Notes under the pieces: model-generated
The model's database searches: none
What the model saw: the letters and a program-made list of their open reading frames with translations, nothing else
Told to the model about the DNA's origin: nothing
NCBI GenBank assembly: GCA_038245905.1
Contig: JBBRRY010000015.1
Span: 19,361 to 83,360, forward strand
DNA length: 64,000 nucleotides
DNA from: Thermoanaerobaculia bacterium
GTDB taxonomy: Bacteria > Acidobacteriota > Thermoanaerobaculia > UBA5066
Reading direction: 5' to 3'
Shown here: positions 1 to 61,056 of the stretch, one piece after another
Numbering within the stretch: the stretch's first letter is position 1
Layout: the number at the start of each line of letters is the position of its first letter
Position numbers and translations under genes: made by a program

Positions 1-162
1 TTCGTCATCGCCGAGGCGCGCGTCGAGAACGCGGACGCGCTGCTCCGGCCCGGAATGCTCGGGAAAGCCAAAGTTTCGACGGGACGCCAGCGGCTTCTCC
101 GCGCCCTCCTCCGCAAGCCGGCGCGCTGGTTCTGGGTACGGCTCTGGCCTCTCCTGCCGTGA
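1..162 (+). CDS. C-terminal end (partial) of a HlyD/RND periplasmic adaptor protein
   Basis: Frame 1 reads FVIAEARVENADALLRPGMLGKAKVSTGRQRLLRALLRKPARWFWVRLWPLLP*. LRPGMxGxAK is the typical adaptor C-terminus. The stop overlaps the next start (GTGA). Confidence 0.8.
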   Translation, partial: FVIAEARVENADALLRPGMLGKAKVSTGRQRLLRALLRKPARWFWVRLWPLLP

Positions 163-2354
163 GCGCAGCTGCGCCGGACCCGGTCTCGCGGTACGTTGCG
201 GCCGCCCGCGGCGGACGCGGCGCGGCGGCTCTCGCCGCGCGCCACACCCCTCGGCAGGACCACCCCGCCCTTCGGGCGGACCTCGTCATCCGCCGCCAGG
301 TGCGAATCGGCGAGGTCACCTGGGTCGTCAAGCAACCGGAGGCGAACAAGTTCTACAACTTCGAGGACGCCGACTGGACCCTCATCGAGCTTTTCGACGG
401 AACGCGGAGTCTCACTGAAATCCGCGAGGAGTACTGCCGGCGGGTCCCGGGAGGCGAGATCGCCTTCACCCTCATCCTCGACTACCAGGAGATGCTGCAA
501 AGGATCGAGTTCCTGGAGCAGTCGGCGGCCGAGAAGAACCTCCAGCTCCTGTCGAAGTTCAAGACCCTGAGGCAGAAAGCGGCGGAGGAGCGCGCGGAGG
601 GTTTCAACATCCTCTTCATGCTCTTCAAGGTCTTCGACCCCGACCGGATCCTCAATCGGACGATCCGGTACGTCCGCTGGCTCTGGAGTCCCCCCGTCGT
701 CGCGGTCGCCTGTGTCGCGTTCCTCTTCACGATCGGTGTCTTCGCGGCGCGCTTCGACACGATCTGGGCCCAGACGATCGAGCTCTACTCGTTCCTGAGA
801 AAGCCGTTCTGGGACTTCGTCCAATTCTGGGTCATCCTGACCACGATCGGCTGCATCCACGAGTTCGGTCATGGCTATGCCACGAAGATGTACGGGGGCG
901 AGGTCCATGACATGGGGATCGCCCTCCTCTACTTCATGCCTGCCTTTTACTGCGACACGACGGACTCGCTCCTCTTCCCGAGCAAGTGGCAGAAGCTGAC
1001 GGTCACGGTGGCGGGGATCTACATCGAGGCGATCCTCTGCACGATCGCGACGGCGCTCTGGGTGGCGAGCTACCCCGACACGCTTCTCCACGAGCTGGCC
1101 TACAAGACGATGCTCTTCACCGGGGTCTCGACGATCTTCTTCAACATCAACCCCCTCGTGAAGATCGACGGCTACTACGCGCTTTGCAGCCTCACCGAGA
1201 TCCCGGAGCTGCGCGAGGAGTCTTTCCGCTGGATGGGCGCGATCTTCCAGCGCCACATCCTCCGCCTGAACGTCGAGGTGCCGGTCGTGTCGCGGCGGAA
1301 GAGGCGGATCTTCCTGATCTACGGTCCGCTCGCGCTGGGCTACATCGGTTTCATCATGGCGTTCATCACGAAGCTCCTCGACAACTTCTACTCGAAGGTC
1401 GTCCCGGAGCTGGCCGTCGTCCTCCTCCTCGTCACGCTCTACTTCTTCTTCCGGAAGAGGGTCCGCCTCGTCCTCCGGATCTCCCGCCTCTTCTATCTCG
1501 ACAAGAAGGAGCTCGTCATGTCGCCGCGCGCCCGTCTCCCTCTCCTTGCTGCCGCCGCCGGCCTCGTCCTCTTTCTCGCCGTCCCCTGGGGCCGGCGGAC
1601 GATCAGGATGGACGCCGTCCTCGAGCCCGCCGCGTCGGTGAAGGTCGAGGCCCCGGAGGACGGAGTCGTGCGGGAGGTCTTCGCGCGCGAAGGGGACATC
1701 CTGCGGGCGGGCCAACCGCTTTTCCGGATCGAGAGCCCCGGCGTCGTGGCCGATTCCGCGTCCCTCTCGGCCCGCCGCGCGGGGGCTGCCGACGAGATGG
1801 GAAGGAGCTTCCGGTCCGGAGACGCCGGGGAGGTCTATCGGGCCGAGCGGAAGGAGGGGGCGGCCGCAGCCGGTCTTGCCCTCGACACGGCGCGCACGGC
1901 GCGACTCTCCGTGCTCAGCCCGATGGACGGGCGTCTCCTTTCGGAAGGCGCGGAAAACCTCGTCGGCAGGTGGGTTACGGCAGGAACCGTTCTCGGAACA
2001 GTTGGCGCCACGCGGCAGCTCACGGCAGTATTCCCGGTCTCGGAGCGCCTTCTGACAGACCTTGTGGTCGGAGCGCCGGTTTCGGTGCAGCTTCGCGCGC
2101 GCCCGTTCCACATCCTCCACGGCACGATTGTTTCCATAGCTCCCGCGTCTCAGGCCGCTTCGTCCGACACCCCCCCGGCACTCCGCCCGTCCGAAACGCC
2201 CGGCCGCATCGTGGCTGTGGCGCGTTTCGAAAATCCCGACGGCAGCCTGAAGCCGAGGCTCGAAGGGAGGGCGAAGATCAGGGGGCCTCGGAGCTCGCTC
2301 CTCGGAGAGGGCTTCCGGATCCTCTCCCGTTGGCTCCGCGCGATCGCCTGGTGA
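159..2354 (+). CDS. PqqD/RRE-like domain + M50 (site-2) zinc metalloprotease + HlyD adaptor fusion
   Basis: HEFGH (HExxH) and NINPLVKIDGY (NPxxxxDG) M50 motifs among TM helices; N-terminal ~90-aa segment 'TWVVKQPEANKFYNF...LFDGTRSLTEI' resembles PqqD/RRE; C-terminal APEDGVV...SPMDG lipoyl/hairpin and LKPRLEGRAKI adaptor end. Confidence 0.85.
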   Translation: MSAAAPDPVSRYVAAARGGRGAAALAARHTPRQDHPALRADLVIRRQVRIGEVTWVVKQPEANKFYNFEDADWTLIELFDGTRSLTEIREEYCRRVPGGEIAFTLILDYQEMLQRIEFLEQSAAEKNLQLLSKFKTLRQKAAEERAEGFNILFMLFKVFDPDRILNRTIRYVRWLWSPPVVAVACVAFLFTIGVFAARFDTIWAQTIELYSFLRKPFWDFVQFWVILTTIGCIHEFGHGYATKMYGGEVHDMGIALLYFMPAFYCDTTDSLLFPSKWQKLTVTVAGIYIEAILCTIATALWVASYPDTLLHELAYKTMLFTGVSTIFFNINPLVKIDGYYALCSLTEIPELREESFRWMGAIFQRHILRLNVEVPVVSRRKRRIFLIYGPLALGYIGFIMAFITKLLDNFYSKVVPELAVVLLLVTLYFFFRKRVRLVLRISRLFYLDKKELVMSPRARLPLLAAAAGLVLFLAVPWGRRTIRMDAVLEPAASVKVEAPEDGVVREVFAREGDILRAGQPLFRIESPGVVADSASLSARRAGAADEMGRSFRSGDAGEVYRAERKEGAAAAGLALDTARTARLSVLSPMDGRLLSEGAENLVGRWVTAGTVLGTVGATRQLTAVFPVSERLLTDLVVGAPVSVQLRARPFHILHGTIVSIAPASQAASSDTPPALRPSETPGRIVAVARFENPDGSLKPRLEGRAKIRGPRSSLLGEGFRILSRWLRAIAW

Positions 2355-2364
2355 CCGTAAACAC

Positions 2365-2392
2365 GAGCGCCCCGGCCGGAGCCGGGGCGCTC
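2365..2392. terminator. Hairpin between convergent genes (likely intrinsic/bidirectional terminator)
   Basis: GAGCGCCCCGGC-cgga-GCCGGGGCGCTC, a perfect 12-bp stem; followed by GTGTTT on the minus strand. Confidence 0.65.
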
Positions 2393-2414
2393 ATGGACGC
2401 GGGGAGATGCGCCG

Positions 2415-2819
2415 TCAGTCGGCGTTGTCCGTCGCCCGCGCGTTCAGGATTTTGGGGGCCGCCTGCGTGCGGGCCGCGGTAACGCGGGGGGCCGCCTGCG
2501 CGCGGGCCGCGGTAACGCGGGGGGCCGCCTGGGCGCGGGCTGCGGTGACGCGAGGAGCCGCCTGCGCGCGGGCTGCGGTGACGCGAGGAGCCGCCTGCGC
2601 GCGAGCCGCGGTGACGCGAGCGGCTGCCTGCGCGCGCGCCATGTTGACGCGGGGGGCCGCCTGCACACGGGCGCTCGTGACCTTGGCCGAAGTCGTCGGC
2701 GTCATGGCGGGGTTGTTGCCGAGATTGCTGACGCGGATCTCACCGACGGCCTGACCGGTCGCCTGCTTGATCTTCGCCTTCTGCTCGTCGGTCAGCTTGA
2801 TCCGTACTTCGTTTGCCAT
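2415..2819 (-). CDS. 134-aa Ala/Arg-rich tandem-repeat protein; candidate multi-core peptide precursor or export substrate
   Basis: ATG at 2819 with AGGAGG RBS; 44-aa unique N-terminus (MANEVRIKLTDEQKAKIKQATG...) followed by 7 full plus 1 degenerate 11-aa repeats (PRVTAARAQAA). Confidence 0.8.
   Translation of the reverse strand: MANEVRIKLTDEQKAKIKQATGQAVGEIRVSNLGNNPAMTPTTSAKVTSARVQAAPRVNMARAQAAARVTAARAQAAPRVTAARAQAAPRVTAARAQAAPRVTAARAQAAPRVTAARTQAAPKILNARATDNAD
2424..2687 (-). repeat. 33-bp coding tandem repeat, 7 copies plus 1 degenerate
   Basis: Unit approx. gcctgcgcgcgggccgcggtaacgcggggggcc on the + strand; no spacers; most variation among the central copies is synonymous. Confidence 0.95.
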
Positions 2820-2882
2820 GGTGGCCTCCTCTTTCTTTCGTTCTTCCGTTCTCGTTGTCCCTGGCTTGGGGCGCAATCTCAA

Positions 2883-2900
2883 TTGCAAAGAGGGGGCCAG
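2883..2900 (-). promoter_or_regulatory. Sigma-54 (-24/-12) promoter for the repeat protein
   Basis: Minus strand CTGGCCCCCTCTTTGCAA has exact GG-N10-GC spacing with TTGCA, ~65 bp upstream of the ATG and next to a GAFTGA activator gene. Confidence 0.8.
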
Positions 2901-2973: not shown

Positions 2974-3009
2974 CGATGACTCTTTCAACCTCGGTTGACG
3001 GATTCATCG
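2974..3009. promoter_or_regulatory. Candidate enhancer (UAS): two palindromic sites for the NtrC-family regulator
   Basis: GATGA-ctctt-TCAAC and GTTGA-cggat-TCATC together form an imperfect inverted repeat ~75-110 bp upstream of the -24 box. Confidence 0.55.
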
Positions 3010-3015
3010 GTCCGC

Positions 3016-4413
3016 TCAGAGGCGGTACTTCCGGCAGAGGTACTTCATCTGGTTTGCGTCGAGGCCGAGTGCTTCGGCGGCCCGCACCTTCACGCCTCCG
3101 GCGCGGGAAATGGCCTGGCTCACGAGCTCCCGTTCGAACCTTCCGACCGACTCGGCAAGGGAGAGGTCGGCAGAGTGCGTCGCGGCGGGTTGGGCCGGCT
3201 CCCGGGAGCCGCCGGCCCGGCCCAACGTCCCCGGCAGATGCTCCTCCCCGATCGTGTCGCCGTCCACCATGAGCGTCAGCATCTCGACGAGGTGTTCCAG
3301 CTCGCGCACGTTTCCGCGGAAGATGTGTCGCCCGAGCACCTCGAAGGCTTCGGACGAGAAGGCCTTCGGGCGGCGGCCATGGCGCTCTGCGGCCCGCGCC
3401 GTGAAGAATTCCACGAGCAAGGGGATGTCCTCGCGCCGCTCTCTCAGCGGCGGAATCCTCAGGATGACGGTGTTCAGGCGATAGAAGAGGTCATTGCGGA
3501 ACGTTCCCGCCGCCACCTGACGCTCCAGGTCTTCGTTCGTGGCCGCGACGAGCCGGATGTCGACGTGGATCGTCTTCGTCCCGCCGACCCGCTCGAAGTC
3601 GCGCTGCTCGAGGACGCGCAACAACTTGGCCTGTACGGCCGGGGATAGTGTCGCGACTTCGTCCAGGAAGAGCGTCCCGCCGTGAGCCATCTCGAAACGC
3701 CCGGGCCGGGAGGCCACGGCCCCGGTGAAGGCACCCCGCTCATGGCCGAAGAGCTCGGACTCGGCTAGCGTCTCCGTGAGCGCCGAGCTGTTCACGGCTA
3801 CGAACGGCCCGTCCCGGCGAGTGCTCCCCCGGTGGATCGCTTCGGCCACGAGCTCTTTCCCCGTTCCGCTTTCACCGGTCACGAGGACGGTCGCGTCGGT
3901 GGGGGCCACCTTCTCGATGGCGGCGAAGAGCCCGCGCATGCTTGGGCTCTCGCCCACCAGCCCGCCGTACGACCCACGCTTGAAGATCTCCTCCTTCAGC
4001 GCCCGGTTTTCAGCCAGGATGCGGTGTCGCTCCAAGGCTCGCCCGAGAACGAGGAGCAGCTCCGACTTCTCGAAGGGCTTCCGGAAGAAATCGAATGCAC
4101 CCAGCTCGACGGCTTTCAGCGCCCAGCGGCGCTCCGCCTCCGCCGTCATGACCACGACCGTGGCGGCCGGCTGGCGCTGCCGAATGGCCCGCAGCAGACG
4201 GAGCCCCTCTTCCGCCTCGCCCGACGGCGGGAGCCGGAGGTCGACGAGGTAGACGTCGGGCTCGAGCTCGGCCAGCTTGAGCCCCGCGGCGGCGTCCCCT
4301 GCACTGTGGACTTCGAACCTGTCCTTCAGAGCCCAGAGGAGCTGGTCGCGCAGGAGCGGATCGTCTTCCACGACGGCGAGGCGCCCCTCCACCGTCTTTT
4401 GGACCACGCCCAC
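3016..4413 (-). CDS. Sigma-54-dependent response regulator (REC-AAA+-HTH), PrsR/NtrC-like
   Basis: VVEDD and DLRLP receiver motifs, GESGTGKE Walker A, GAFTGA loop, LFLDEV Walker B, Fis-type HTH. Confidence 0.95.
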   Translation of the reverse strand: MGVVQKTVEGRLAVVEDDPLLRDQLLWALKDRFEVHSAGDAAAGLKLAELEPDVYLVDLRLPPSGEAEEGLRLLRAIRQRQPAATVVVMTAEAERRWALKAVELGAFDFFRKPFEKSELLLVLGRALERHRILAENRALKEEIFKRGSYGGLVGESPSMRGLFAAIEKVAPTDATVLVTGESGTGKELVAEAIHRGSTRRDGPFVAVNSSALTETLAESELFGHERGAFTGAVASRPGRFEMAHGGTLFLDEVATLSPAVQAKLLRVLEQRDFERVGGTKTIHVDIRLVAATNEDLERQVAAGTFRNDLFYRLNTVILRIPPLRERREDIPLLVEFFTARAAERHGRRPKAFSSEAFEVLGRHIFRGNVRELEHLVEMLTLMVDGDTIGEEHLPGTLGRAGGSREPAQPAATHSADLSLAESVGRFERELVSQAISRAGGVKVRAAEALGLDANQMKYLCRKYRL

Positions 4414-5121: not shown

Positions 5122-5904
5122 TCAGGGCCGGGAAGGCGCACGGAACGTGAGCCGGACCGCCATCCCCGGCCGCAGTATTTTTTTCGGATCGTGCTTCACC
5201 CGCACGATCACCTGCACCGTCCCGCTGCCCGGATCGATGACGGGGCTGATGAACGAGACGCGCCCGCTCGAGCGTGCGTCCGGGAAATCCGGAGCCTCCA
5301 CGGTCACTTCGTCACCGGTCTTCACGGTCTGAAGGCCGGAGGCCGGCAGATAGGCGCGCGCCAGAAGCGGCTGGAGCGCCATCACCTTGAAGAGCGGTTT
5401 GCTCTCTTCGAGCGTGAACTTTTCCCCCACGCGCGCGTAACGGTCCGCCACGATCCCGTCGAAGGGAGCGCGCACCACGGACCGGTCGATCACGAGTTTC
5501 GCCCTCTCCAGCTCCACGAGGGCCAGCTCGTGTCGCGATCTTCTCTGCTCGAACTCGGCCTCGCTCGTCAGATTCTGGCGGCGCAGCTCCTCGTACCTTT
5601 TCAGGTCCGCGAGACTCACGGCGAGCGTCTCCTCCGCGGCTCTCAGATCCAGGCGGAACTCGCGCTGGTCCAGCGTGGCGAGCGGCTGCGACTTCCGCAC
5701 GAGCTCGCCCCGCTCGACCTGGATCGAGTCGATCACGCCGCTGACCCGAGTCGTCACCGTGACTTCCTGCTCGACCATCAGGTTCGAGGCGACGGTGAGC
5801 GGCGCAGGAAGCGCCGGCGCCGGCAGAGCGGCGCTGGCCCTCGCGAGCGCAAGGAGGGAGACGGCGATGAACGCCCGACCGGTAAGCCGGATTGAGTCGC
5901 GCGT
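5122..5904 (-). CDS. Efflux RND/HlyD periplasmic adaptor subunit with signal peptide
   Basis: SGVIDSIQVERGELVRKSQPLATLD, VRAPFDGIV, ISPVIDPGSGT and LRPGM motifs. Start placed at ACG 5904, 8 nt after GGAGG (see findings). Confidence 0.85.
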   Translation of the reverse strand, partial: TRDSIRLTGRAFIAVSLLALARASAALPAPALPAPLTVASNLMVEQEVTVTTRVSGVIDSIQVERGELVRKSQPLATLDQREFRLDLRAAEETLAVSLADLKRYEELRRQNLTSEAEFEQRRSRHELALVELERAKLVIDRSVVRAPFDGIVADRYARVGEKFTLEESKPLFKVMALQPLLARAYLPASGLQTVKTGDEVTVEAPDFPDARSSGRVSFISPVIDPGSGTVQVIVRVKHDPKKILRPGMAVRLTFRAPSRP

Positions 5905-5945
5905 GACTTTTTCCTCCAGGGTGTCTGGAACGGAATGATACCGAA

Positions 5946-7172
5946 TCAGGCGGGCGTGAGCGCGCGCACGAGGCGCTTGAGGGCCTCGTAGAAAACACCA
6001 GGCGGCGGCAGGAGGCTGACGACGACGAACGCCTCGAAAGGGAACTCGTAGAAATAGCCGGGCTGGACGAGCAGATCGTGTGATTCGAGGAGATCGAGGA
6101 CGAGCTCCTCCTCGGGGCGGACAGCCGGCACGCGGAGGCACGCGGCCCAGCCGGCCCGGACGGGTAGGACCGTAACACCGCCACCCGCGGGGAAGGCAGC
6201 CTTGAGCGCGCGCTCGTTGCGAAGCACGCGCGCCCAGATCGCTTCCGCCGTCCCGCGCCCGTACTCCAGAAGCCTGGGGAGCGCGAGCTGCACGGGCGTC
6301 GAGACGGAGAGATACGAATCCGCAACCCACTCGAGGCGCTCGATCGCCTGCTCGAGGAGCCCGGCGGGTCCATTCGCGAGTATCCATCCGAGCTTCATCT
6401 GCGGGAGGCCGGCCGACTTGGAGAGCCCGCCCAGCGAGAAAACGAGCGCTTCGGGCGCGTTCGCGGCTGCGGCCACGCGCACGTCGCCGGGCCGGTCCGA
6501 GTAGCGATAGTCGACGAACACCTCGTCGGAGACGACGGCGAACCGGCGCTCCTTCGCCAGCGTCATGAGATCCGACAGCTCCGCGCCAGAGAGGGAGGTG
6601 CCCGTCGGGTTGTTCGGATTGACGACGACCACGGCCGCGACGCGACGTCCTTCCACCTCGACGCGCCGCACTTCCGCCTCCACGGCCGCCGCGTGGAACG
6701 CGAAGCCGTCATCGCTCGCGAGCGCGTAGCGGCGCAGCGACAGGCACTCGAGCTCCGCGAGGGTGTCGAGAAGCGGGTAGGACGGCGCCGGCACGAGGAC
6801 GACGTCGCCGGGATCGCCCACCAGCTTGAAAAGCCAGCCGTAGGCTTCGCTCGACGAGGCCGTCAGGACGATCTGGTGCGGGGGCGCGAGAACGCCGTGC
6901 AACGCCGCGTAGTAGTTGCTCACGGACGTGCGCGCCGCGAGCAGTCCCCTCGGATCGGGTGCATACGAGAGGCCGCGGGGATCGGAGAGAGCCGCGAGAA
7001 TGCGCGCGTCCGGCGCCGACGCAGCGTTGTCGAAGAGGTCGGCTTCGCCCGAACGCAGAGAGACGGCGGTCGGATTCGACACGGCGAGATCGAGGAACGG
7101 GCGCGTTCGCGCCGCGACCGCGCGCGTCAGGCGGTTCACGTCGCGGGGGGCGGGGATCCGCTGCGAGAACAT
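5946..7172 (-). CDS. PLP-dependent aminotransferase class I/II
   Basis: NPNNPTG, SDEVF and GLSKS(K-PLP)...KLGW motifs. Confidence 0.92.
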   Translation of the reverse strand: MFSQRIPAPRDVNRLTRAVAARTRPFLDLAVSNPTAVSLRSGEADLFDNAASAPDARILAALSDPRGLSYAPDPRGLLAARTSVSNYYAALHGVLAPPHQIVLTASSSEAYGWLFKLVGDPGDVVLVPAPSYPLLDTLAELECLSLRRYALASDDGFAFHAAAVEAEVRRVEVEGRRVAAVVVVNPNNPTGTSLSGAELSDLMTLAKERRFAVVSDEVFVDYRYSDRPGDVRVAAAANAPEALVFSLGGLSKSAGLPQMKLGWILANGPAGLLEQAIERLEWVADSYLSVSTPVQLALPRLLEYGRGTAEAIWARVLRNERALKAAFPAGGGVTVLPVRAGWAACLRVPAVRPEEELVLDLLESHDLLVQPGYFYEFPFEAFVVVSLLPPPGVFYEALKRLVRALTPA

Positions 7173-7187
7173 GCGCGGCGCGTTTTC

Positions 7188-9281
7188 TCAGCGCCCGGAC
7201 ACGAGGTCTTCGGGTTTCCACGGCGAGGCGGCGCCGCCGAGGAACCTGTGGAACCAGTCGAGGTGCGCCGCGTAGTAGAGGCCCATCTCGAACGCGCTCG
7301 GCCAGTGGCCCGCCTTCTCGAACACGATCAGGCGCGACGGCACGCCGCGCGCCTGCAGGTCCGTGAAGAATTCGAGCGACTGCGTATAGGGAACGCGGAA
7401 GTCCTTTTCGCCGGTAATGACGAGGCAAGGGGTGCGGAAATCTGTCACGTACGAGGACGGCGATTGCTTCGCGTAGAGGTCTCCGTTCTCCCACGGCGCG
7501 CCCTTGATGTCCCACTGGGGGAACCAGACCTCCTCGGTCGAGGAGTACATCGCGCGCAGGTCGTAGACGCCCATCATCGAGGCGAGGGCCTTGAACCTCG
7601 TCGTGTGGCCTTCGAGCCACATCGTCGCGTAGCCGCCCCAGGACCAGCCCATCGCGCCCATGCGGCTCTTGTCCACATACGGAAGCCTCTCGAGCGCGTC
7701 CGCGACTTTCTCGATGTCGGTCATCACGCGGCCGTTCCAGTCGCCCGAGATGGCCGACGTGTAGGCCTGGCCGAATCCGGTCGAGCCGTGCGGATTCGGA
7801 AATCCGACGACGTAACCCGCGCCCGGATAGACCTGCCAGTCGCCGCGGTAGGAGTCCGCCCACTGCTGCTGCGGCCCGCCGTGGATGTTCAGGATGAGCG
7901 GGTACTTCTTCGCAGGATCGAAGCCGTGCGGCTTGACGATCCAGACCTGCACGGGCTGTCCGTCGGCACCGGGCACGCTGATCTCCTCGGCCGGCCGGAT
8001 GTCGACCTCGTTTTCGAGGGCGGCGTTGTGCGTCGTCAGGCGCTGTCCCGCCTCGTCCGCGCCTTTCGCGAGAGAGAGGCGGTAGAGTTCGAGCGGGCTC
8101 CCGATGCGGCGCCGCGCGGCCACGGCGAAGGTCACGTCCGGCGCGAGCGTCCACGCGTCGAGAGACCCGACGGACGACACCGCGCGGAAGGCGCCCGTCG
8201 CGAGGACGATCTCGTAGAGCGGCGTTCGCCCCTTCACGTCGGCCGTGAAGAAGATCCGGCTTCCGTCCCGCGAGAAGTCGAAGTCGCGGACCGCGTTGTC
8301 GAACCTGGCCGTGAGGTCACGCTCGGCGCCGGTCGCGCGGTCCCGGAGGACGATCCGGAAGCGGTCGGCCTCGTAGCGGGGCGTGAGCTGCCGCTTGAAG
8401 GCGAGGAAGCGGCCGTCGGGGGAATAACGCGGCGACCCGTCGTAGCCCTTGTTCCAGGCCGTGAGATTTTTCGGGACTCCGTCACCCTTCACGGCGACGG
8501 TCCAGACGTCCGCGTTCGTCGAGAAGGCGGCGTCCGCGTCGCGGTTCGAAGAGAACGTGAGCTCGGTCCCGTCCGGCGAGAGGTCGAAGTCCCGCCCGCC
8601 ACCGACCGAGAAGACGGGCGAGTCGAAGTCGCCCGGTGTCAGGTCGCGAATCGCCTTCGCCGCGTCGGGCTCGGCAAGGTCGAGGATGAAAACATGCGTG
8701 CGCTTCCCGTCCTTCCACTCGGTCCAGTGCCGGTAGAGGAGGGCGTCCGCGAGGTGCGCCTTGATCTTGTTCGCCTCGTGCGCGTCGGCCGCCTTCTTGT
8801 TGCACGCCGCGTCGGCGCCGCAGGAGGGGACGACGTCCGCCGCGAAGAAGACGGACCGGCCGTCCTTCGAGAAGGCCGGCCCGTCGATCCCTCCGGGGAA
8901 CCGGGTCTTCTGCTCGGCCTCGCCGCCGCCAAGAGGGAGGAAGAAAAGCTGCGGTTCACCCGTACGCGTCGAAACGAACGCGAGCGTCTTTCCGTCAGGC
9001 GAGAAGAACGGGTGCTCGTCGCGCGCGTCGCCTGCGGTGATCGGCCGGGCGTTTGTCCCGTCCGCGTCCACGCGCCAAAGGGCGGCGGTCTTCCTCTTCG
9101 TCGCCCAGTCGTTCGTCGTGACGGTGTAGACGATCGCCTTCCCGTCGGGCGAGATCGCGGGCTCGCCGACGGCCTTCACGCGATAGAGGTCCTCGAGCGT
9201 GAAGGCGCGGCCGGAGGAGGCGGCGAGAGCGGGAGAGGCGAGGACGAAGAAGAGGGCGAAGGCGGTGGACAGTTTCGGCAT
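7188..9281 (-). CDS. S9 family dipeptidyl/acylaminoacyl peptidase, secreted
   Basis: Signal peptide, SPDG propeller repeats, IHGGP, nucleophile GWSWGG, D in KDFRV, H in AGHW. Confidence 0.93.
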   Translation of the reverse strand: MPKLSTAFALFFVLASPALAASSGRAFTLEDLYRVKAVGEPAISPDGKAIVYTVTTNDWATKRKTAALWRVDADGTNARPITAGDARDEHPFFSPDGKTLAFVSTRTGEPQLFFLPLGGGEAEQKTRFPGGIDGPAFSKDGRSVFFAADVVPSCGADAACNKKAADAHEANKIKAHLADALLYRHWTEWKDGKRTHVFILDLAEPDAAKAIRDLTPGDFDSPVFSVGGGRDFDLSPDGTELTFSSNRDADAAFSTNADVWTVAVKGDGVPKNLTAWNKGYDGSPRYSPDGRFLAFKRQLTPRYEADRFRIVLRDRATGAERDLTARFDNAVRDFDFSRDGSRIFFTADVKGRTPLYEIVLATGAFRAVSSVGSLDAWTLAPDVTFAVAARRRIGSPLELYRLSLAKGADEAGQRLTTHNAALENEVDIRPAEEISVPGADGQPVQVWIVKPHGFDPAKKYPLILNIHGGPQQQWADSYRGDWQVYPGAGYVVGFPNPHGSTGFGQAYTSAISGDWNGRVMTDIEKVADALERLPYVDKSRMGAMGWSWGGYATMWLEGHTTRFKALASMMGVYDLRAMYSSTEEVWFPQWDIKGAPWENGDLYAKQSPSSYVTDFRTPCLVITGEKDFRVPYTQSLEFFTDLQARGVPSRLIVFEKAGHWPSAFEMGLYYAAHLDWFHRFLGGAASPWKPEDLVSGR

Positions 9282-19415: not shown

Positions 19416-20309
19416 CTAGACGGATCTTCGGCGCATCTCGCCAAGCGTGATCAGGACGACCGCCCACACGATCACGGCCGCCGCCAGAAGCGTTCTCGGG
19501 GTGACCGGCTCCGCCGCGAGAGCCCAGCCGAGAAACACGGCCACGGCCGGATTCACGAACGCGTAAGTCGAAACGAGGGCCGGGGCCGCCACGCGGAGGA
19601 GCCACATGTAAACCGTGAAGCCGAGGAGCGAGCCGAATACGAGAAGGTAGAGGAGGGCCGCCCAGGAACGCGCGGAGACGTGCGCGGGCGAGAAGCGGGT
19701 CCATTCACCCGTCGCGAGAGAAAGGGCGAGAAGCAGGCCCCCGCCCGCGAGCATCTGCAGCGCCGTCGCCTGAAGCGGTGACGACGCTGGTGTGAAGCGG
19801 CGAGAGAGAACGGAGCCGAGGGCCCACGTGAACGCGGCGAAGAGCACCGCGGCGGCTCCGAGGAGGTCGATGCGATCGCCGCCGAGCCGTGCGGGGCCGA
19901 GCAGGAGCGCGACGCCCCCGAGGCCGAGGGCGACTCCGGCGAGAGCGCGGCCGCCGGGCGCATGCCGCTCGGGCGGCAGCGCCTGCAGGAGGACGATGAA
20001 GAGCGGCTCGATCGCGATGAGGAGAGCGGCGAGGCCCGACGAGATGCGTTGCTCGGCCCAGACCACTCCGCCGTTTCCGCAGAGGAGCAGCAGGGCGCCG
20101 CACGTGAAGGCCGGCGCGAGGTCGCGGGCCGCGATGCGGGGTGCTCCCCTCGCCTTTGCGACCGCGAGGAGGATCGCGCCGGCGGCGGCGTAGCGGACAC
20201 CCGACATCACGAAGGGCGGGATCGACTCGAGTCCGAACCGGATCGCGAGGTAGGTGGATCCCCAAACGACGTAGAGGACGAGAAGGCCGAGGCCGACGCC
20301 GCGTTTCAC
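19416..20309 (-). CDS. EamA/DMT family transporter (YedA-like)
   Basis: YVVWGSTYLAIR and YAFVNPAVAVFLG; GTG start overlaps the upstream stop. Confidence 0.92.
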   Translation of the reverse strand: MKRGVGLGLLVLYVVWGSTYLAIRFGLESIPPFVMSGVRYAAAGAILLAVAKARGAPRIAARDLAPAFTCGALLLLCGNGGVVWAEQRISSGLAALLIAIEPLFIVLLQALPPERHAPGGRALAGVALGLGGVALLLGPARLGGDRIDLLGAAAVLFAAFTWALGSVLSRRFTPASSPLQATALQMLAGGGLLLALSLATGEWTRFSPAHVSARSWAALLYLLVFGSLLGFTVYMWLLRVAAPALVSTYAFVNPAVAVFLGWALAAEPVTPRTLLAAAVIVWAVVLITLGEMRRRSV

Positions 20310-22066
20310 GGCGCGATCATCGCCTCCCACACGGCGCGCGACATTCTCTTCGCCGCCTCGTAAACGCGCGCGCGCCCCTCCTCGTTCTTCCCGAAGTCGT
20401 TCGCGAGGAGGACGAGGACGTACTCACGTCCGTCCGGCAGGCGGACGATCCCCGCGTCGTGCTGGACGGAGGAGATCGACCCCGTCTTGTGGGCGACGAT
20501 GGCGCCCGACTGCGGGTGGAGGCCGGCGGGGATCTCCTCGTTAAACGTCTGTCCTGCGAGGATCTCCCAGGCCTTCGATTTCGCGGCGGCGGAAAGCTTT
20601 GGCGTCCGGACGGCGGCCTCCATGACCGCGCCCATGCCGGCCGCGTCCGTCTCGTTGTTGAGACCCTTGTCGAACGCCTTCGAGTCTTCGACGCAGCGCC
20701 GGACGTGGACGGTCGGCGCGCCGAGTGCGTCGGCGAGCTTCTGGACGTTCTCGGGCGCGACGAGCGAGAGGAGAATGTTCGTCGCGAGGTTGGACGAGCG
20801 GACGATCATCTCGGTCGCAAGGAACTCGACCGTGGCCGTCTTCCCGAGGTGCGCCACGGTAGGGCCGTCGTTGTCCTCGAGGCCGATCGAGAAGAGCGAA
20901 CCGTCGACGAGGCTCTTGAACTCGTTCTTCACGGGCAGCTCGTCGGTCAGCCGAAGGCTTCCCGCGTCTACGCGGCGGAGCACCTCGAGGAGGACGGGCG
21001 TTTTCATCGTTGAGGCGGCGTGCATGACCAGGGAGGGATCCTTTGAAAGGGAAAGACCGCTGGCGAGATCCTTGAACCAGATGCCGAAGCGCGCCCCGCT
21101 CCCGTCGGCGATCGAGTCGAGCGTGCGCTGCAGGGCGCGCACTTTCGTCACGCTGAGACGCGGCCCCTCTTCACCATCTAAGGAATTTCTCTTCAATCTC
21201 CTCGCATAACGAAACAGAGGCTTCAGGAACGGGCTGTCGAACGGCGTGATCTGGACGCCAGGGACGTTGTGCCTTGTGGACTGAAGGACCGTTCCGTCGC
21301 CGATCCACATCGCCTCGTGGTCGATCTTGTCCGGCGTCCCGAAGAAGAGGAGGTCGCCGGGCTGGAGCTTCTCGAACGCGACGGGGACGAGCTGCGGGTC
21401 CTGAAACGCTTGTTCGGAGCTGTTCCTCTTCAGCGTGACGCCGTGCTCCGAGAAGATCCGCGCCATCAGGCCGGAGCAGTCGAACCCGAGGGGCGTCGTC
21501 CCGCCCCACGTGTAGGGCGCGCCGAGGAAGCGCCTGCCGAAGGAGATCCAGGAAGAGGGGGAGGAGAGAGGGGAAGAAGAGGGAGCTTCTTTGAAGGGTA
21601 AGAAGGAGACGTCGCACGCGGCGATGTAACCGCTGCGCCCGTCCGGCAGGACGACCCGCACCCACGAATACGGGTCCCCCTCTTTACCTTCAAAGAAATC
21701 CGAAAAACCCAGGGTTGCTCCAACCGGGGCCGTGAGAAGCGGCTTCTGCTTTGTGAACGAAGGTGCCGCGTATACGTGGGCGAAGTTGGACGTCACGCGC
21801 GCGACCTTCGCTCCCGCCGCCGGCGGCGCGTCGCCCCGGCGGAGTGCCCGCTCGGGGATCCACGCAACCTCGCCCGCGGCCGTCCGTACCTTCGCGAAGC
21901 CGGCGGCGTCTTCGAGGACGGTCACGCGGTCGCCTAGGATCGCCTGGTCGTCCACGCTCGACGTCTCGTCCGGCCTCACGAAGAGGTCCTCGACGGCGGT
22001 GACGACGACCGCCGTTTTCGCCGGAGAGAGGGAAAAGAGGAGGAAGGCTGCCGCAAACGTGCGCAT
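20306..22066 (-). CDS. SH3-NlpC/P60 (YkfC-like) peptidase fused to a class A beta-lactamase-fold serine hydrolase
   Basis: Signal peptide, two SH3b-like domains, PYTWGG..GFDCSG and catalytic H (DHEAM); C-terminal domain with STMK, SSN and HKTG. Confidence 0.9.
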   Translation of the reverse strand: MRTFAAAFLLFSLSPAKTAVVVTAVEDLFVRPDETSSVDDQAILGDRVTVLEDAAGFAKVRTAAGEVAWIPERALRRGDAPPAAGAKVARVTSNFAHVYAAPSFTKQKPLLTAPVGATLGFSDFFEGKEGDPYSWVRVVLPDGRSGYIAACDVSFLPFKEAPSSSPLSSPSSWISFGRRFLGAPYTWGGTTPLGFDCSGLMARIFSEHGVTLKRNSSEQAFQDPQLVPVAFEKLQPGDLLFFGTPDKIDHEAMWIGDGTVLQSTRHNVPGVQITPFDSPFLKPLFRYARRLKRNSLDGEEGPRLSVTKVRALQRTLDSIADGSGARFGIWFKDLASGLSLSKDPSLVMHAASTMKTPVLLEVLRRVDAGSLRLTDELPVKNEFKSLVDGSLFSIGLEDNDGPTVAHLGKTATVEFLATEMIVRSSNLATNILLSLVAPENVQKLADALGAPTVHVRRCVEDSKAFDKGLNNETDAAGMGAVMEAAVRTPKLSAAAKSKAWEILAGQTFNEEIPAGLHPQSGAIVAHKTGSISSVQHDAGIVRLPDGREYVLVLLANDFGKNEEGRARVYEAAKRMSRAVWEAMIAP

Positions 22067-22091
22067 CCCGGGATTCCACCATAATCCGGCC

Positions 22092-23243
22092 ATGACGCAG
22101 CCTCCTTTCCCCTCCCTCTCCCGCCGTGAACTCATTTTCTCGTCCGCTGCCGCCGCCGCGGCTTCCGCGCTGCCCGAGGCCCTGCTCGCGGAGGCTCCTT
22201 CGGGTCCGTCCCCTTCGTCGCCCTCTCTCTCCTACCGCGCTCTTCCCTTGAAGCTCGCACACACGTGGACGATCGCGCGCGGTTCTTCGGACACGAAGAC
22301 GAACGGTCTCCTGTCGCTCTCGGGCGAAGGCGTGACGGGATACGGCGAGGCCGCCGCGAACAAGCGCTGGAACCAGAGTTTCGAGACGTCGGAGGCGGCG
22401 TTCGCGAAGGTGAAGGCGGCCGTCGCGGGGCTTTCGCCCTGGGAGCACCTGACGTGGCTCGAGCGTGCCGAGAAAGAGGCCGGGCCCGACAGCGAAGTCG
22501 TCGCCGCGCTCGACCTCGCGCTATGGGACTGGAAGGGCAAGAGGCTGAACCGTCCGGTTCACGAGCTTCTTGGAATCCCGAAGGGCCGCATGTCGATCAC
22601 GACATTCTCGATCGGGATCGACACCGCGGAGGTCATGAAGCAGAAGGTCCTGGAGGCCGCGGCGTTTCCGAGGTTGAAGATCAAGATCGGCCTCCCGAAC
22701 GACGAGGAGAACATCGCGGCGATCCGGTCCGTGACCGACAAGCCCATCACCGTGGACGCGAACGAGGGCTGGACGAGCGTGGACGAGGCGAAGAAGAAGA
22801 TCGCGTGGCTGAACGGCGTCAAACCCCTCTTCCTCGAGCAGCCCATGCCCGCGGCGATGGACGGCGAGATGGTGAAGCTCAAGGGCCTCGCGACGTTTCC
22901 GATCCTGGGCGACGAGGGGGTGCTGCATGCGTCCGACGTGGCCGCCAAGGCCGGGCTGTTCGACGGCGTCGTCCTGAAGCTCGCAAAGTCGGGCGGCATC
23001 ACCCGTGTCTACGAGATGGCGGCCGTCGCCCGCGCCCACGGCCTCAAGCTGATGCTCGGCTGCATGATCGAGTCGTCGCTCGGCATCGCGGCGGGCGTCG
23101 CCGTGGGTCCGCTCTTCGACTGGCTCGACATCGACGGCAATCTCCTCCTGGCGTCAGACCCGTTCAAGGGCCTCTCGATCGCGAGCGGCCGGTGGGCGCT
23201 GCCCGAGGGACCCGGCCTCGGCGTCGTTTTCGCGGGCGTCTAG
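22092..23243 (+). CDS. L-Ala-D/L-Glu dipeptide epimerase (enolase superfamily) with Tat signal
   Basis: SRRELIF Tat motif; KIK, VDANEGW, EQP, DE, KLAK.GG, GCMIE and DIDG motifs. Confidence 0.9.
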   Translation: MTQPPFPSLSRRELIFSSAAAAAASALPEALLAEAPSGPSPSSPSLSYRALPLKLAHTWTIARGSSDTKTNGLLSLSGEGVTGYGEAAANKRWNQSFETSEAAFAKVKAAVAGLSPWEHLTWLERAEKEAGPDSEVVAALDLALWDWKGKRLNRPVHELLGIPKGRMSITTFSIGIDTAEVMKQKVLEAAAFPRLKIKIGLPNDEENIAAIRSVTDKPITVDANEGWTSVDEAKKKIAWLNGVKPLFLEQPMPAAMDGEMVKLKGLATFPILGDEGVLHASDVAAKAGLFDGVVLKLAKSGGITRVYEMAAVARAHGLKLMLGCMIESSLGIAAGVAVGPLFDWLDIDGNLLLASDPFKGLSIASGRWALPEGPGLGVVFAGV

Positions 23244-24173: not shown

Positions 24174-25769
24174 TCAAGGCGTGGTCGAAGCCGAATGCCC
24201 GTTCAGTTTCTCCGCGAGGGCGAGACCGCGTCTCATGATTTCGTTCCACGGGAAGAGGGCGCCGGGGTCGTTCTTGCGGTCCGGGGCGATGTGCTGATGC
24301 CCGGCGATCCACGGCGACTCGAGCTCGAACATCGCCGTGAGAACGCCCACGAGCCGGACGACGGTCTCGATTTGCGCGGGCGTGAACGGATACCGGTTTC
24401 CGTCCCCCGTGATCTCGACGCCGACGGACGTGCGGTTCACGGCCATCCGCCCGTGCAGGAGAGACGCGCCCGCGTGCCACGCCCGATGCTCGAGCGAGAC
24501 GAACTGCACGAGGCGGCCATCGCGTTCGACGAGGAAGTGCGAAGAGACCCTGCTCTCGGGTTTCTGGAAGAGCTCGATGCACTCTTCGTCCGTGTCCTGC
24601 GCGGTGTGGTGGAGGACGAGGGCCGAGATCGGCTCGATCTTCCACGGCATGTATCCGTCCCACCAGGAGTTCGGCATCGGGATGAGGCAGGCGTCCGTCT
24701 CGTCCCCGCCGGCGGCCCGCCAGAGGTCCCAGAAGCGGCGGTCCCCGTCCCGGAAGACGCGGTCGAGGTGCGGCGCGCCTGGGTTCGCGCGGGCCTCGGC
24801 GAGCGTCGTCTCCGCGCGGGGCACGGGCGGCACGAGGACGGGGGGAAGAAAAGGCTCGACGACAGGCGGAAGGTCCGGCAGCGAGGCGGACCAGTCGTTC
24901 ACGATCCCTGCGGCGATATCGCCCATCGCGCGGATGGCGGTGGTCGCGCTTCCCTTCGCGTCGGGGATGCGGTCGGCAAAGGCGACCAGGACGAACCGGC
25001 CCTTCTTCGTCGTGAGGATGCCCGAGTCGTTCCGAACGCCTCCGTAGCTGCCCGTCTTGCCGGCCCACGACGTCCCGCTCTCGTGCAGGAGAAGCCGGGG
25101 CAGGCGGTCGTGCGTGTGCTGCGTCGCAAGGAGCTTCGCGAGAAGGCGATCGCCCGCCGGACCCGTGAGCGTGCGCGTCGCGACGCGCCTGTAGAACTCC
25201 GCCGTGTCCTCGGGCGTCATGCTCCCAAGGGGCGGCCATTTCGGCGGCTCCTGTCCTCGACTCGGGATACGGCCGACGAGCCGGATTCCCGGCAGGCCGA
25301 GCGCGGCCATGCGGGTGTTCACGGCTTCGGCGCCGAAGAGGTCGATGAAGCGCTCGGCCGCCGTGTTGTCGGAGATCGCGATCATAAGCTGCAGGAGATC
25401 GCGATTCGTGGGCGTGAGACCCGGATCGAATTCGTCCAGCATCCCGGAGCCGGCGGCCACGTTCTTCGCGGTCAGCCTCCAGCGATCCGTCAGGTCGAAG
25501 CGGCCCTCGCGCTCGAGGGCGACGGCCTCGGCGAGGAGAGCGATCTTGATGACGCTTGCGCCTTCGAAGTTGTCCGTGGCGTTCAGCTCCAGGCGTCTCC
25601 CGCTCTCGACGTGGAGCGCGACGATTCCCATGCGCGCCCCGCTGCCCGCCGCGAGCTTCGCGACGCGGCGGGCGAGGCCCGCGTCCGGAGGTGACACGCG
25701 CAGCGAAGGCGGAAGAGTCGCGCATGAAGAAAAAAGAAGCAGCCCGGCGACGGGGAGGAGGCGCCTCAT
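24174..25769 (-). CDS. Lipoprotein: beta-lactamase-fold serine hydrolase fused to N-acetylmuramoyl-L-alanine amidase (Amidase_2/AmpD-like)
   Basis: Lipobox-like LFSSC; SVIK, SDN and KTG; then LVLHHT, VSSHF, RAWHAG, GVEI and GH..IAP.RK.DPG. Confidence 0.9.
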   Translation of the reverse strand: MRRLLPVAGLLLFSSCATLPPSLRVSPPDAGLARRVAKLAAGSGARMGIVALHVESGRRLELNATDNFEGASVIKIALLAEAVALEREGRFDLTDRWRLTAKNVAAGSGMLDEFDPGLTPTNRDLLQLMIAISDNTAAERFIDLFGAEAVNTRMAALGLPGIRLVGRIPSRGQEPPKWPPLGSMTPEDTAEFYRRVATRTLTGPAGDRLLAKLLATQHTHDRLPRLLLHESGTSWAGKTGSYGGVRNDSGILTTKKGRFVLVAFADRIPDAKGSATTAIRAMGDIAAGIVNDWSASLPDLPPVVEPFLPPVLVPPVPRAETTLAEARANPGAPHLDRVFRDGDRRFWDLWRAAGGDETDACLIPMPNSWWDGYMPWKIEPISALVLHHTAQDTDEECIELFQKPESRVSSHFLVERDGRLVQFVSLEHRAWHAGASLLHGRMAVNRTSVGVEITGDGNRYPFTPAQIETVVRLVGVLTAMFELESPWIAGHQHIAPDRKNDPGALFPWNEIMRRGLALAEKLNGHSASTTP

Positions 25770-49575: not shown

Positions 49576-50074
49576 GCCCCCAAGCCGGCGTGAGGTCTTC
49601 CTGAGGCTGGGATTCGGAGCGGGTGTGGCCGCCCTCGGCGTGCAGGCCGTCGCCTCGCTTCGGTCGCTCGTCCCGAACGTCTCCTACGACTCGCCGACGA
49701 CCGTGAAGATCGGAATGCCGAACGACTTTCCGGACGGCATGAAGTTCCTCCCGGACGAGCGGCTGTTCGTGTTCCGGGAAGGGAAGACGCTCCACGCGGT
49801 CTCCGCGGTGTGTACGCACCTCGGCTGCACCGTGCGCGCGGAGGCGCTGTCCGCACCGGAGACGAAGGACGTCAGCGGCAAGCCGCTGCGCCTCACGCAC
49901 CGCTTCCTCTGTCCGTGCCACGGCTCGAAGTACGCGGGCGACGGCACGAACGTGGCGGGCCCGGCGCCGAAGCCTCTCGCCTGGTACCACCTGTCGCTTT
50001 CGCCGGACGACGGCCAGCTCGTCGTCGACCTCGCGCAGCCCGTGGAGCGCGATTTTCGATTCACTCTGGCCTGA
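49568..50074 (+). CDS. Rieske 2Fe-2S subunit of a Rieske/cytochrome b complex
   Basis: Tat-like SRREVFL; CTHLGC and CPCHGS; GPAPKPL. Confidence 0.93.
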   Translation: MSEPPSRREVFLRLGFGAGVAALGVQAVASLRSLVPNVSYDSPTTVKIGMPNDFPDGMKFLPDERLFVFREGKTLHAVSAVCTHLGCTVRAEALSAPETKDVSGKPLRLTHRFLCPCHGSKYAGDGTNVAGPAPKPLAWYHLSLSPDDGQLVVDLAQPVERDFRFTLA

Positions 50075-50089
50075 AGGGCGGGACGAGAC

Positions 50090-51439: not shown

Positions 51440-51440
51440 C

Positions 51441-52685: not shown

Positions 52686-52716
52686 GGATCACGCCTCGAG
52701 CCGAAGGAGAAGAGAA

Positions 52717-54588: not shown

Positions 54589-54607
54589 AGAAGGGATCCT
54601 TACCAAG

Positions 54608-60747: not shown

Positions 60748-61056
60748 TCAGGCCAGCCGCTGGATCAATCCGACGAGCGCATCGGCTTCGGCCCTGCCGA
60801 GCACGCGGTCCGCGAGGGGGTAGAGAATTTGCTCTTCCTTGATGTTGTGACCGCCGAAGATGGATGCGAGCCGCGCGCGAATCTCCGACGCACCGGCACC
60901 GCCCCCGTCGAGAGCGGTCGCAATTTCCGCGAGGCAGGAACGGATCTCGACGTGCTCGGCCCGCATGACGGCCGTGGGGCCCGCCGTCGGGCCGAACCCG
61001 ACACGCGCCTCGAGGGCCGGGAAGAGGATCTCCTCCTCGAAGCGAATGTGCCGCTC
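60748..61056 (-). pseudogene. 5'-truncated hemerythrin-domain gene
   Basis: Reads ERHIRFEEEILFP...MRAEH...HNIKEEQILYP; the first His-containing helix and a proper start are missing. Confidence 0.8.

Follow-up and report, generated by a model that had tools for sequence, protein, structure and literature searches.

A segment of the genome of a Thermoanaerobaculia bacterium (Acidobacteriota; UBA5066; GenBank assembly GCA_038245905.1, contig JBBRRY010000015.1, positions 19,361 to 83,360 of the forward strand) carries a small gene (positions 2415-2819, reverse strand) whose product combines a conserved N-terminal leader with a tandem-repeat tail. Throughout this report, the window denotes the entire stretch of 64,000 nucleotides that was analyzed, and positions are counted from its first letter. 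We favor the view, with a probability of about 0.55, that this protein is a leader-guided cargo, which would be cut and exported by a protease-adaptor machine encoded next to it and switched on by a two-component system. A sequence-only reading of this DNA had offered several proposals for the repeat protein: a multi-core precursor (with Thr/Arg modification or release of cationic 11-mers), a fiber or amyloid-like subunit, or a polycation resembling histone H1 and AlgP. The precursor proposal is the best supported among them, through the conserved leader and variable tails of the homologues and through a fold on the neighboring M50 protease that resembles the RiPP recognition element (RRE) of systems for peptides that are made on the ribosome and modified after translation (RiPPs). 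Nothing was found that speaks for a fiber or amyloid subunit.

In the 134-residue protein, the leader is followed by eight 11-residue units and a short acidic cap (Table 1). The units named in the sequence-only reading (AKVTSARVQAA, PRVNMARAQAA, ARVTAARAQAA, three times PRVTAARAQAA, PRVTAARTQAA, and PKILNARATDN) are borne out by the translation, with A-D and the stop codon following the last of them. Its further statements about the array also hold: the QAA end is kept by units 1-7 and the pattern basic-V/I-x-x-A-R is present in all eight units, Cys and aromatic residues are absent from residues 45-134, the sole two acidic residues of this region lie in the terminal DNAD, and codon variants occur in adjacent pairs (CCT CGC GTC in units 4-5, CCC CGC GTT in units 6-7). 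At the DNA level, Tandem Repeats Finder (TRF) reported a period of 33 nt, 6.6 copies, 88% matches, 0% indels and a score of 298, and the tandem repeat is far beyond chance. The encoded array is a 90-residue Ala-rich polycation with 16 basic residues (14 Arg and 2 Lys); the tail is composed of 38% Ala and 17% Arg+Lys and has a net charge of +14.

For the precursor, neither Pfam nor NCBIfam offers a model. A search of the 134-residue protein (P0001) against NCBIfam returned no family at E <= 0.1, H1-like models included, and its single match in Pfam, to the Apolipoprotein A1/A4/E repeat (PF01442), was sub-threshold (30.5 bits versus a cut-off of 90). The apolipoprotein assignment was rejected, as members of the family depart from the 11-residue period; an 11-mer amphipathic helix of the apolipoprotein or late embryogenesis abundant (LEA) type was dropped as well, the repeat period of the family ranging from 5 to 24. 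In the ESM Atlas, residues 1-45 gave a top score of 0.80 to unnamed clusters, which corresponds to chance level. An AlphaFold2 (AF2) model of the whole protein places a strand (residues 5-8), a helix (11-21) and another strand (27-30) in the leader and predicts the tail as one long helix; with a pLDDT of 67 and a pTM of 0.28, this model is too weak to lean on.

On the evidence of conserved signals and codon usage, the ORF at 2415-2819 is a genuine gene. The mechanically called open reading frame (ORF) is longer, with a TTG start at 2888 and 157 codons for amino acids. Since the homologues begin at the position of the ATG at 2819, a ribosome-binding site (RBS) precedes this codon, and a sigma-54-type element lies within the TTG extension, we consider the ATG to be the true start. 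All 38 listed upstream regions, which come from the window and from 37 loci obtained by scanning one genome per species, show a GGAG-type site before the ATG. In the same 38 loci, the motif TGG[CT]-N8-TGC was found without exception 43-81 nt upstream of the ATG, compared to a mean of 0.96 of 38 for shuffled upstream regions. When a slightly stricter form of this motif was sought across the whole loci of about 20 kb, it occurred almost exclusively before the precursor gene and never before the protease operon; no sigma-70-like promoter was found between positions 2300 and 3100. Further upstream, the palindrome TCAAC-N4-5-GTTGA (with at most one mismatch) was detected 87-121 nt from the -24 element in 26 of the 38 loci, with only 0.3 of 38 in shuffled sequences. 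The palindrome of the window, situated just past the stop codon that closes the gene for the sigma-54 activator, is a candidate enhancer at the position expected for such an element. The spacing of the promoter element, the adjacent activator with its Sigma54_activat domain and the upstream palindrome together mark the precursor gene as a predicted sigma-54-dependent gene. On its other side, the terminator-like hairpin between the two convergent genes has a predicted RNA folding energy of -47.1 kcal/mol (z = -6.2; none of 200 shuffles was as stable), and its core was flagged by a consensus scan.

Codon differences between the repeats point the same way. In 29 arrays, codons were compared with their counterparts one repeat further on, and 548 synonymous versus 675 non-synonymous differences were counted, i.e., 44.8% synonymous, while 28.5% are expected from random single-base changes. 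This count leaves aside two truncated genes (L007, L009), three with weak periodicity (L012, L017, L025) and four with apparently frameshifted tails (L013, L015, L032, L037); the repeat period of L036 was taken as 6. Strong cases are L019 (102 synonymous versus 50 non-synonymous) and L020 (62 versus 13), and in the window a comparison of neighbors among the central units 3-7 yielded 8 synonymous versus 2 non-synonymous differences. The synonymous excess between repeats therefore indicates that the peptide is maintained while the DNA drifts. It could be argued that there is no gene at all, just tandemly repeated GC-rich DNA in which more than one frame is open by chance, given that the window has a GC content of about 70%, that several open frames overlap at this site, and that the antisense frame at 2407-2754 is open for 115 residues. 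This possibility is practically negligible and is refuted by the synonymous excess together with the promoter, the RBS, the terminator and a leader whose protein sequence is conserved over 37 loci and 81 representative clusters.

Homologues of the precursor were collected at three depths. A word-indexed search returned 11 relatives, the scan of one genome per species returned the 37 loci mentioned above (36 labeled as Thermoanaerobaculia, Acidobacteriota or Acidobacteria metagenome-assembled genomes [MAGs] and one binned as Acidithiobacillales), and a profile of the first 45 residues gave 164 matches at E <= 1e-3 among 1.84 billion representative proteins, with 81 clusters at E <= 1e-10. A segment of about 40 N-terminal residues is common to all close members, with a mean column identity of 78-80% in 26 sequences, and closes at the junction G-x-N-P-A (residues 34-38), which hardly varies. 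Beyond this junction, the tails have unrelated sequences and share nothing but their tandem-repeat form. The sequence-only reading had suggested that a conserved leader with variable cores among homologues would support a precursor, and precisely this pattern was found: across the loci, the leader (first ~40 residues) is 65-90% identical and the tails are 15-67% identical. The best tail periods range from 5 to 24 residues, with clear cases of 5, 6, 8, 9, 10, 11, 12, 16, 17, 18, 20, 22, and 24. Even in the loci whose M50 protease is 82-86% identical to that of the window (L002-L006, L008), the leader retains 78-90% and the tail 27-66% identity, and the period has changed. In distant loci, the leader (72% identity) is better conserved than the protease (about 50%). 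Copy number also varies within one type of 11-residue unit: P0002 and P0006 have four units each, L003 has six and L002 has eight. The gene is present in a single copy per locus.

Certain features of the tails are restricted to parts of the family. The motif A-A-P-R/K occurs in the repeats of the clade to which the window belongs (window, L001-L009) and is not universal. An acidic residue lies within the last six positions of 12 of the 28 complete precursors, including that of the window and all seven complete close relatives (L001-L006, L008). Four tails (L013, L015, L032, L037) enter long Arg/Pro/Gly-rich read-through frames that extend to 572 residues in L015; these look frameshifted, either through assembly errors in long-read MAGs or as real slippage variants. 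Searches of plasmids by tblastn with the leader and with one of the distant relatives of the R-A-N-P type described below gave no match in one case and only an unrelated Streptomyces match in the other.

The composition of the tails bears on the proposal of an H1/AlgP-like polycation made in the sequence-only reading. In such a scheme, the tail would coat DNA, RNA, polyphosphate or anionic lipid inside the cell, the N-terminal segment would be a partner-binding or dimerizing module, and the protease would merely turn the protein over. The composition of the window protein fits this proposal, and most tails of the family contain 15-26% Arg+Lys and almost no acidic residues; the distant relative P0102 matched an H1-like model below threshold (30 bits versus a cut-off of 80), the predicted tail is one long, low-confidence helix, and a polycation is difficult to export. 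The family as a whole does not fit. The same leader and synteny occur with acidic or neutral tails: those of L022, L031, L033, and L034 are net acidic (20-21% Asp+Glu), with full synteny in L031, L033, and L034 (the contig of L022 ends just past the gene), and basic residues are entirely absent from the repeats of some representatives, among them P0037, P0042, and P0063. Since P0001 itself finds no NCBIfam match at the threshold given above, and the linkage to the M50-HlyD protease with its RRE-like domain in 29 of 31 loci would be left unexplained, we regard an intracellular polycation as unlikely.

Among the weaker full-length matches to the N-terminal segment (E 1e-4 to 1e-8 in the same search of 1.84 billion proteins), several types can be recognized. 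In the first, the segment precedes repeats that each end in R-A-N-P (e.g., P0104, P0105, P0129, P0131, P0149); with up to nine units, P0104, P0105, P0118, P0129, P0131, and P0149 display a multi-core layout that is clearer than that of the window protein. The second type joins the segment to E-L-E-E-R-I-A-P, with a short C-terminal peptide of varied sequence behind it (P0123, P0133, P0145, P0154, P0155), and the third joins it to a motif of the double-glycine type that precedes a short peptide (P0110, P0135, P0142, P0157). A fourth type carries two tandem N-segments per protein (P0094, P0117, P0132, P0136, P0144). When aligned (alignment A5), the Pro residues of N-N-P-A, R-A-N-P and R-I-A-P fall at the same position after the leader. 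These distant relatives have the look of classical precursors of secreted peptides or RiPPs; against NCBIfam they gave sub-threshold matches only, to the ApyA family (E 8e-5) and to some bacteriocin leader models. Matches that cover only profile positions 8-21, many times over, come from long helical repeat proteins, presumably of the L-T-x-x-Q type, and were treated as spurious.

The precursor gene lies between two groups of genes. The genes for a small HlyD-type adaptor, a histidine kinase and a sigma-54 response regulator lie on the same strand as the precursor gene and read toward it in this order; a STAS protein, a GAF-GAF-HlyD protein and the M50-HlyD protease are encoded convergently, with the STAS gene and most of the GAF-GAF-HlyD gene presumably lying beyond the start of the window. 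The M50-HlyD gene was present in 29 of the 31 loci whose downstream sequence reaches 1.5 kb or more, and that of the response regulator in 32 of the 34 with at least 1.6 kb upstream, where it ends 154-311 nt before the precursor ATG. GAF-GAF-HlyD was found in 29 loci. Upstream of it, a STAS protein of 111 residues is encoded in 23 of the 25 other loci that span 18 kb or more, a count obtained with each of three reference loci. This STAS gene (L016:15141-15476, reverse strand, with equivalents in L026 and L031) is of the anti-sigma-antagonist type with a D-S-S-G-L motif and heads the protease operon, which hints at partner-switching control of the machine. The histidine kinase has neither a transmembrane or hydrophobic segment nor an obvious sensor domain; because no hydrophobic segment is present, it is predicted to be soluble. 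The small HlyD adaptor has one N-terminal hydrophobic segment; its listed ORF reaches 6387, and the 263-residue homologue from L002 aligns from about residue 160.

A conservation screen of all ORFs from three divergent loci yielded no further gene conserved across clades, so that the conserved set comprises the STAS, GAF-GAF-HlyD, M50-HlyD, precursor, response regulator, kinase and small HlyD genes. Neither an ABC transporter nor an outer-membrane factor or channel nor a tailoring enzyme is conserved across these loci of about 20 kb, 26 of which span at least 18 kb. In L019 and L020, both full-length loci, the precursor gene stands among housekeeping genes without its cassette partners. These two genes (L019:10001-10750 and L020:10001-10606) encode about 30 copies of G-K-P-G-L-S in a collagen-like Gly-X-Y pattern; they are flanked by genes for tRNA modification, a short-chain dehydrogenase/reductase (SDR) and a permease, and retain the sigma-54 element and a related palindrome. 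Next to the cassette of the window, positions 5946-9281 (reverse strand) encode a class I/II aminotransferase (5946-7172) and a secreted peptidase of the S9 prolyl-oligopeptidase family with PD40 repeats. We dropped both as cassette members, as they are syntenic only in L003, L006, and L008 (3 of 37 loci); the position of a peptidase that may cut after Pro next to repeats with A-A-P is suggestive, but most loci do not share it.

Table 1. Coordinates of the precursor gene, its signals and the neighboring cassette genes in the window
Feature	Position	Strand	Basis
C-terminal end of GAF-GAF-HlyD protein	1..162	+	tblastn to the end of the ~807-aa GAF-GAF-HlyD protein in the loci
731-aa RRE-like / M50 / HlyD fusion	159..2354	+	Pfam Peptidase_M50, HlyD_3, HlyD_D23
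15-bp GC-rich hairpin, terminator-like	2362..2395	.	between two convergent genes (precursor, protease)
Leader-plus-repeat coding sequence, 134 aa	2415..2819	-	translation; stop codon 2415-2417
Short acidic C-terminal cap T-D-N-A-D, residues 130-134	2418..2432	-	translation
Eight tandem 11-aa units, residues 45-132	2424..2687	-	translation; TRF DNA array 2454-2672
Conserved N-terminal leader, residues 1-44	2688..2819	-	alignments A2 and A4
Ribosome-binding site GAGGAGG	2825..2831	-	5 nt before ATG
Sigma-54 type -24/-12 element TGGC-N8-TGCA	2884..2899	-	80 nt upstream of ATG
Palindrome TCAACC-N2-GGTTGA, candidate enhancer (upstream activating sequence)	2985..2998	.	99 nt upstream of -24 element
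Sigma-54-dependent response regulator (receiver + AAA+ + HTH_8)	3016..4413	-	Pfam; Sigma54_activat 234 bits
Histidine kinase, 241 aa	4416..5141	-	HATPase_c; H-box visible
Small HlyD-family periplasmic adaptor (provisional start)	5122..5920	-	Pfam, NCBIfam RND_mfp 156 bits

The protease of the cassette is built from an RRE-like domain (approximately nt 264-533), an M50 region and a HlyD adaptor (residues ~490-731). Its M50 region scored 35.5 bits with Pfam Peptidase_M50 (cut-off 27.2) and contains HEFGH (nt 858-872, residues 234-238) as well as N-I-N-P-L-V-K-I-D-G (nt 1143-1172, residues 329-338), which follows the pattern N-x-x-P-x-x-x-x-D-G that we take to be the second metal-ligand signature of the family; five to six hydrophobic segments are located between residues 172 and 478. 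With both zinc motifs intact, the protein is classified as a predicted M50/site-2 protease. Its best curated matches, both below cut-off, are RiPP leader peptidases: daptide_HExxH (NF041824) came first in NCBIfam with an E-value of 1e-49 and 169.4 bits (cut-off 300), aligning residues 53-431 with profile positions 17-366 of 379, and the YydH/LiaK family (NF058609) was matched at E 6e-13 with 49 bits (cut-off 225). Searches of the PDB by sequence with the protease and the leader profile returned only biotinyl/lipoyl-like fragments and noise. At least 621 M50-HlyD relatives were found at E <= 1e-20 among 8000 candidates scored, and the sources give them no names other than "putative peptide zinc metalloprotease protein" and "HlyD family efflux transporter periplasmic adaptor subunit".

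For the N-terminal domain (residues 36-150), AF2 modeling with alignment A3 predicted a fold with the order beta3-alpha3 and a mean pLDDT of 84. An RRE is described in PMC11117315 as three helices and a three-stranded sheet that binds the precursor as a fourth strand. In a Foldseek search of the PDB with our model, RRE-containing RiPP proteins occupied ranks 1-7, 9-12, and 15, the top match being TbiB1 with leader peptide (5v1u; E 1.3e-3, probability 1.00, TM-score to the target 0.67); the others included the sactipeptide radical-SAM enzyme (5why/5wgg), cyanobactin heterocyclases (among them 4v1u), lasso B1 (6jx3) and ThcOx. Because none of the Foldseek matches reached E <= 0.001 and the Pfam PqqD model did not match the protease at E <= 0.01, we call the domain RRE-like, a probable RRE on the strength of its predicted fold that falls short of a proven one. 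Two runs of complex prediction with this domain (A3) and the leader (A4), carried out without controls, each gave a score of 0.00, which weighs neither way.

From these elements, we envisage the following mechanism. The soluble histidine kinase would phosphorylate the adjacent sigma-54 activator, which would turn the precursor gene on from the palindrome that it binds, located about 100 nt upstream from the -24/-12 promoter. Capture of the leader would fall to the RRE-like domain, which forms the cytoplasmic N-terminus of M50-HlyD, and the intramembrane zinc protease would cut near the G-x-N-P-A junction. Asn-Pro has been discussed as a helix-breaking cue for site-2 proteases in the SREBP literature, and serves here as a lead only. 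The repeat cargo would then enter a periplasm-spanning assembly of three HlyD-type adaptors (M50-HlyD, GAF-GAF-HlyD and the small HlyD), with the STAS and GAF modules gating the hand-over into this assembly, and the product would be a secreted, unmodified, species-specific peptide that comprises the complete tail or fragments thereof. We infer the binding of the leader by the RRE-like domain, the cleavage site, the export, the product and its role from the sequences; signaling, antagonism or a function as matrix polycation are candidate roles. A precedent for one protein acting at two of these steps may be EpeP, the intramembrane M50 protease of the Bacillus epipeptide system, which the review PMC10885120 presents as the presumed agent of both the cutting and the export of its own peptide.

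Were the tail processed at all, its dicing into units would be the less probable outcome, albeit one with a real chance. In the clade of the window, a cut after each A-A-P would yield 11-mers, and on such a polyprotein reading cuts would fall after each A-A-P in this clade and after each R-A-N-P in the distant relatives. Taken to its full extent, the system would be an RRE-guided intramembrane protease fused to its own adaptor, which would serve as both the leader peptidase and an ATP-independent exporter of unmodified polyprotein precursors carrying many copies of short, species-specific peptides; a sigma-54 two-component system would switch it, STAS and GAF modules would gate it, and its peptides would act in signaling or antagonism, as a trait typical of soil Acidobacteriota. 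This extended version we put forward with reservation, as a rather doubtful one.

Several observations weigh against leader-guided maturation and export. A conserved energy source and an exit duct are missing from the cassette: because neither an ABC transporter nor an outer-membrane channel is conserved, export would need unseen ones. The export of a polycation against the inside-negative membrane potential is unfavorable. The kinase is sensorless and membrane-free, and so leaves a simple secreted-peptide feedback loop unclosed, and the presence of STAS and GAF modules suggests a regulatory machine over a plain biosynthetic one. To these come the precursor genes of L019 and L020, which lack the cassette partners, the marginal structural match of the protease N-domain and the missing PqqD match.

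Alternatively, the protein could be a regulatory substrate and a feedback element of the signaling module, with an N-segment that docks onto the kinase, onto the activator or onto components of the STAS/GAF type, an M50 protease that destroys it on cue, and repeats that provide a disordered handle or timer. The precursor gene is the sole sigma-54 target seen in the loci, the kinase lacks a sensor, STAS and tandem GAF domains are signaling modules, and the stronger conservation of the leader relative to the protease in distant loci would fit several binding partners. Yet a handle needs no exact repeats kept at the peptide level, as they are in L019 and L020, three periplasmic adaptor domains would be superfluous for turnover in the cytoplasm, and the distant relatives resemble secreted-peptide precursors. 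A purely regulatory function thus appears improbable to us.

The RRE-like fold also raises the question of a modified peptide. The repeats could be multiple cores for Thr, Arg or Pro chemistry, with the enzymes encoded elsewhere in the genome and the M50 protease effecting release; the nearest curated relatives of the protease act on modified peptides, the duplicated-leader protein P0117 is weakly like the ApyA precursor model (E 8e-5, 22.7 bits, cut-off 40), and split clusters exist, such as apy, which is without a protease according to PMC11117315. Against this stand the lack of any conserved candidate enzyme in the 26 loci of at least 18 kb, the restriction of the aminotransferase and S9 peptidase to 3 of 37 loci, and the lack of a residue common to the tails that might be a shared modification site. 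A modified RiPP is therefore quite improbable, and the Thr/Arg modification contemplated in the sequence-only reading is left without support, no modifying enzyme being conserved within +/-10 kb.

When compared with known systems, the cassette works like a leader-guided peptide maturation and export system, as far as its sequences allow this to be judged, and it does not fall into the daptide, epipeptide, double-glycine, H1-like or apolipoprotein classes. It resembles the Bacillus epipeptide system in that an intramembrane M50 metalloprotease adjoins a small precursor gene, and the window protease matches YydH/LiaK at E 6e-13; it differs in reaching only 49 of 225 bits, in having neither a radical-SAM epimerase nor an ABC transporter in its conserved core, in the fusion of the protease to an RRE-like domain and HlyD, and in the long tandem-repeat cargo, the epipeptide core being short. 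The daptide model NF041824, which is the best curated match and covers both the N-terminal domain and the M50 core, was reached with 169 of 300 bits; the companion tailoring enzymes that we take to belong to daptide clusters are not conserved here (the aminotransferase at 5946-7172 occurs in 3 of 37 loci), and daptides have no counterpart to the HlyD fusion and the repeats. The N-domain shares the topology of three strands and three helices with PqqD-like RREs and the TbiB1-leader complex (5v1u), its top Foldseek matches, but at about 14% identity and with marginal E-values, and it is fused to a membrane protease and known here from a predicted fold. The system answers only in part to the definition of a RiPP, with a conserved leader, a probable RRE and no modification enzyme in its conserved gene set. 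The double-glycine leader class does not apply either: the window protein has no G-G/G-A motif, the locus has no ABC/C39 gene, and the double-glycine-type motif is confined to the distant leader relatives.

Multi-core precursors, such as bacterial multi-core RiPPs and polyprotein pro-hormones like the yeast alpha-factor, consist of a leader and tandem short units. The present family has this layout, one leader with tandem units whose copy number differs between close relatives (four in P0002, eight in L002), but lacks common flanking recognition or dibasic sites and a modifying enzyme. Histone-H1-like, AlgP and PhaF tails are made of Ala-Lys-Pro repeats; the window repeat is likewise Ala-rich, Pro-punctuated and strongly basic, but it matches no model, is Arg-rich rather than Lys-rich, has acidic or neutral relatives and stands in the context of a protease and adaptors. 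For the kinase and the sigma-54 activator, the nearest curated models are PrsK and PrsR of the PEP-CTERM system (TIGR02916/TIGR02915). The kinase reached 143 of 300 bits and matched only the C-terminal third of PrsK, the membrane part of which it lacks, and the regulator reached 429 of 503 bits (PEP_resp_reg); neither an exosortase nor a PEP-CTERM protein turned up in the locus. In the full-text literature searched, with most subscription journals outside reach, there was no description of an RRE-M50-HlyD protein, the leader or the cassette.

Acidobacteriota are among the most abundant bacteria in soil, and to the best of our knowledge, almost nothing is known about their peptide chemistry and cell-to-cell communication. 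Our analysis defines a seven-gene cassette that recurs in at least 29 species-level genomes and whose parts are unnamed or carry generic labels ("HlyD family adaptor", "putative peptide zinc metalloprotease"). Should the favored reading of leader-guided maturation and export prove true, it would extend the RRE principle from modifying enzymes to a membrane protease/exporter and provide a bacterial example of hormone-like, multi-copy peptide precursors; the leader profile would then be a search handle for hundreds of hypervariable secreted peptides.

Scans of the window with Rfam and for tRNAs gave no match. Further into the window, a respiratory block on the forward strand (47650-57802) encodes an Fe-S/flavin oxidoreductase, a Rieske protein, cytochrome b and cytochrome c, followed by genes of the nitrous-oxide reductase type (nos_propeller + cupredoxin, NosD, NosL); the organism may reduce N2O. 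Two unusual class-A-like beta-lactamase fusions are encoded on the reverse strand at 20306-22135 and 24174-25769, one with NlpC/P60 and SH3 domains and one with an N-acetylmuramoyl-L-alanine amidase domain; they look like enzymes of cell-wall recycling or remodeling, and the pair is also found beside the cassette in L002. Finally, a perfect tandem repeat of four 9-bp copies (GGCGGTCGT) is present at positions 61066-61101, in or near a HlyIII-like ORF (60860-61354).

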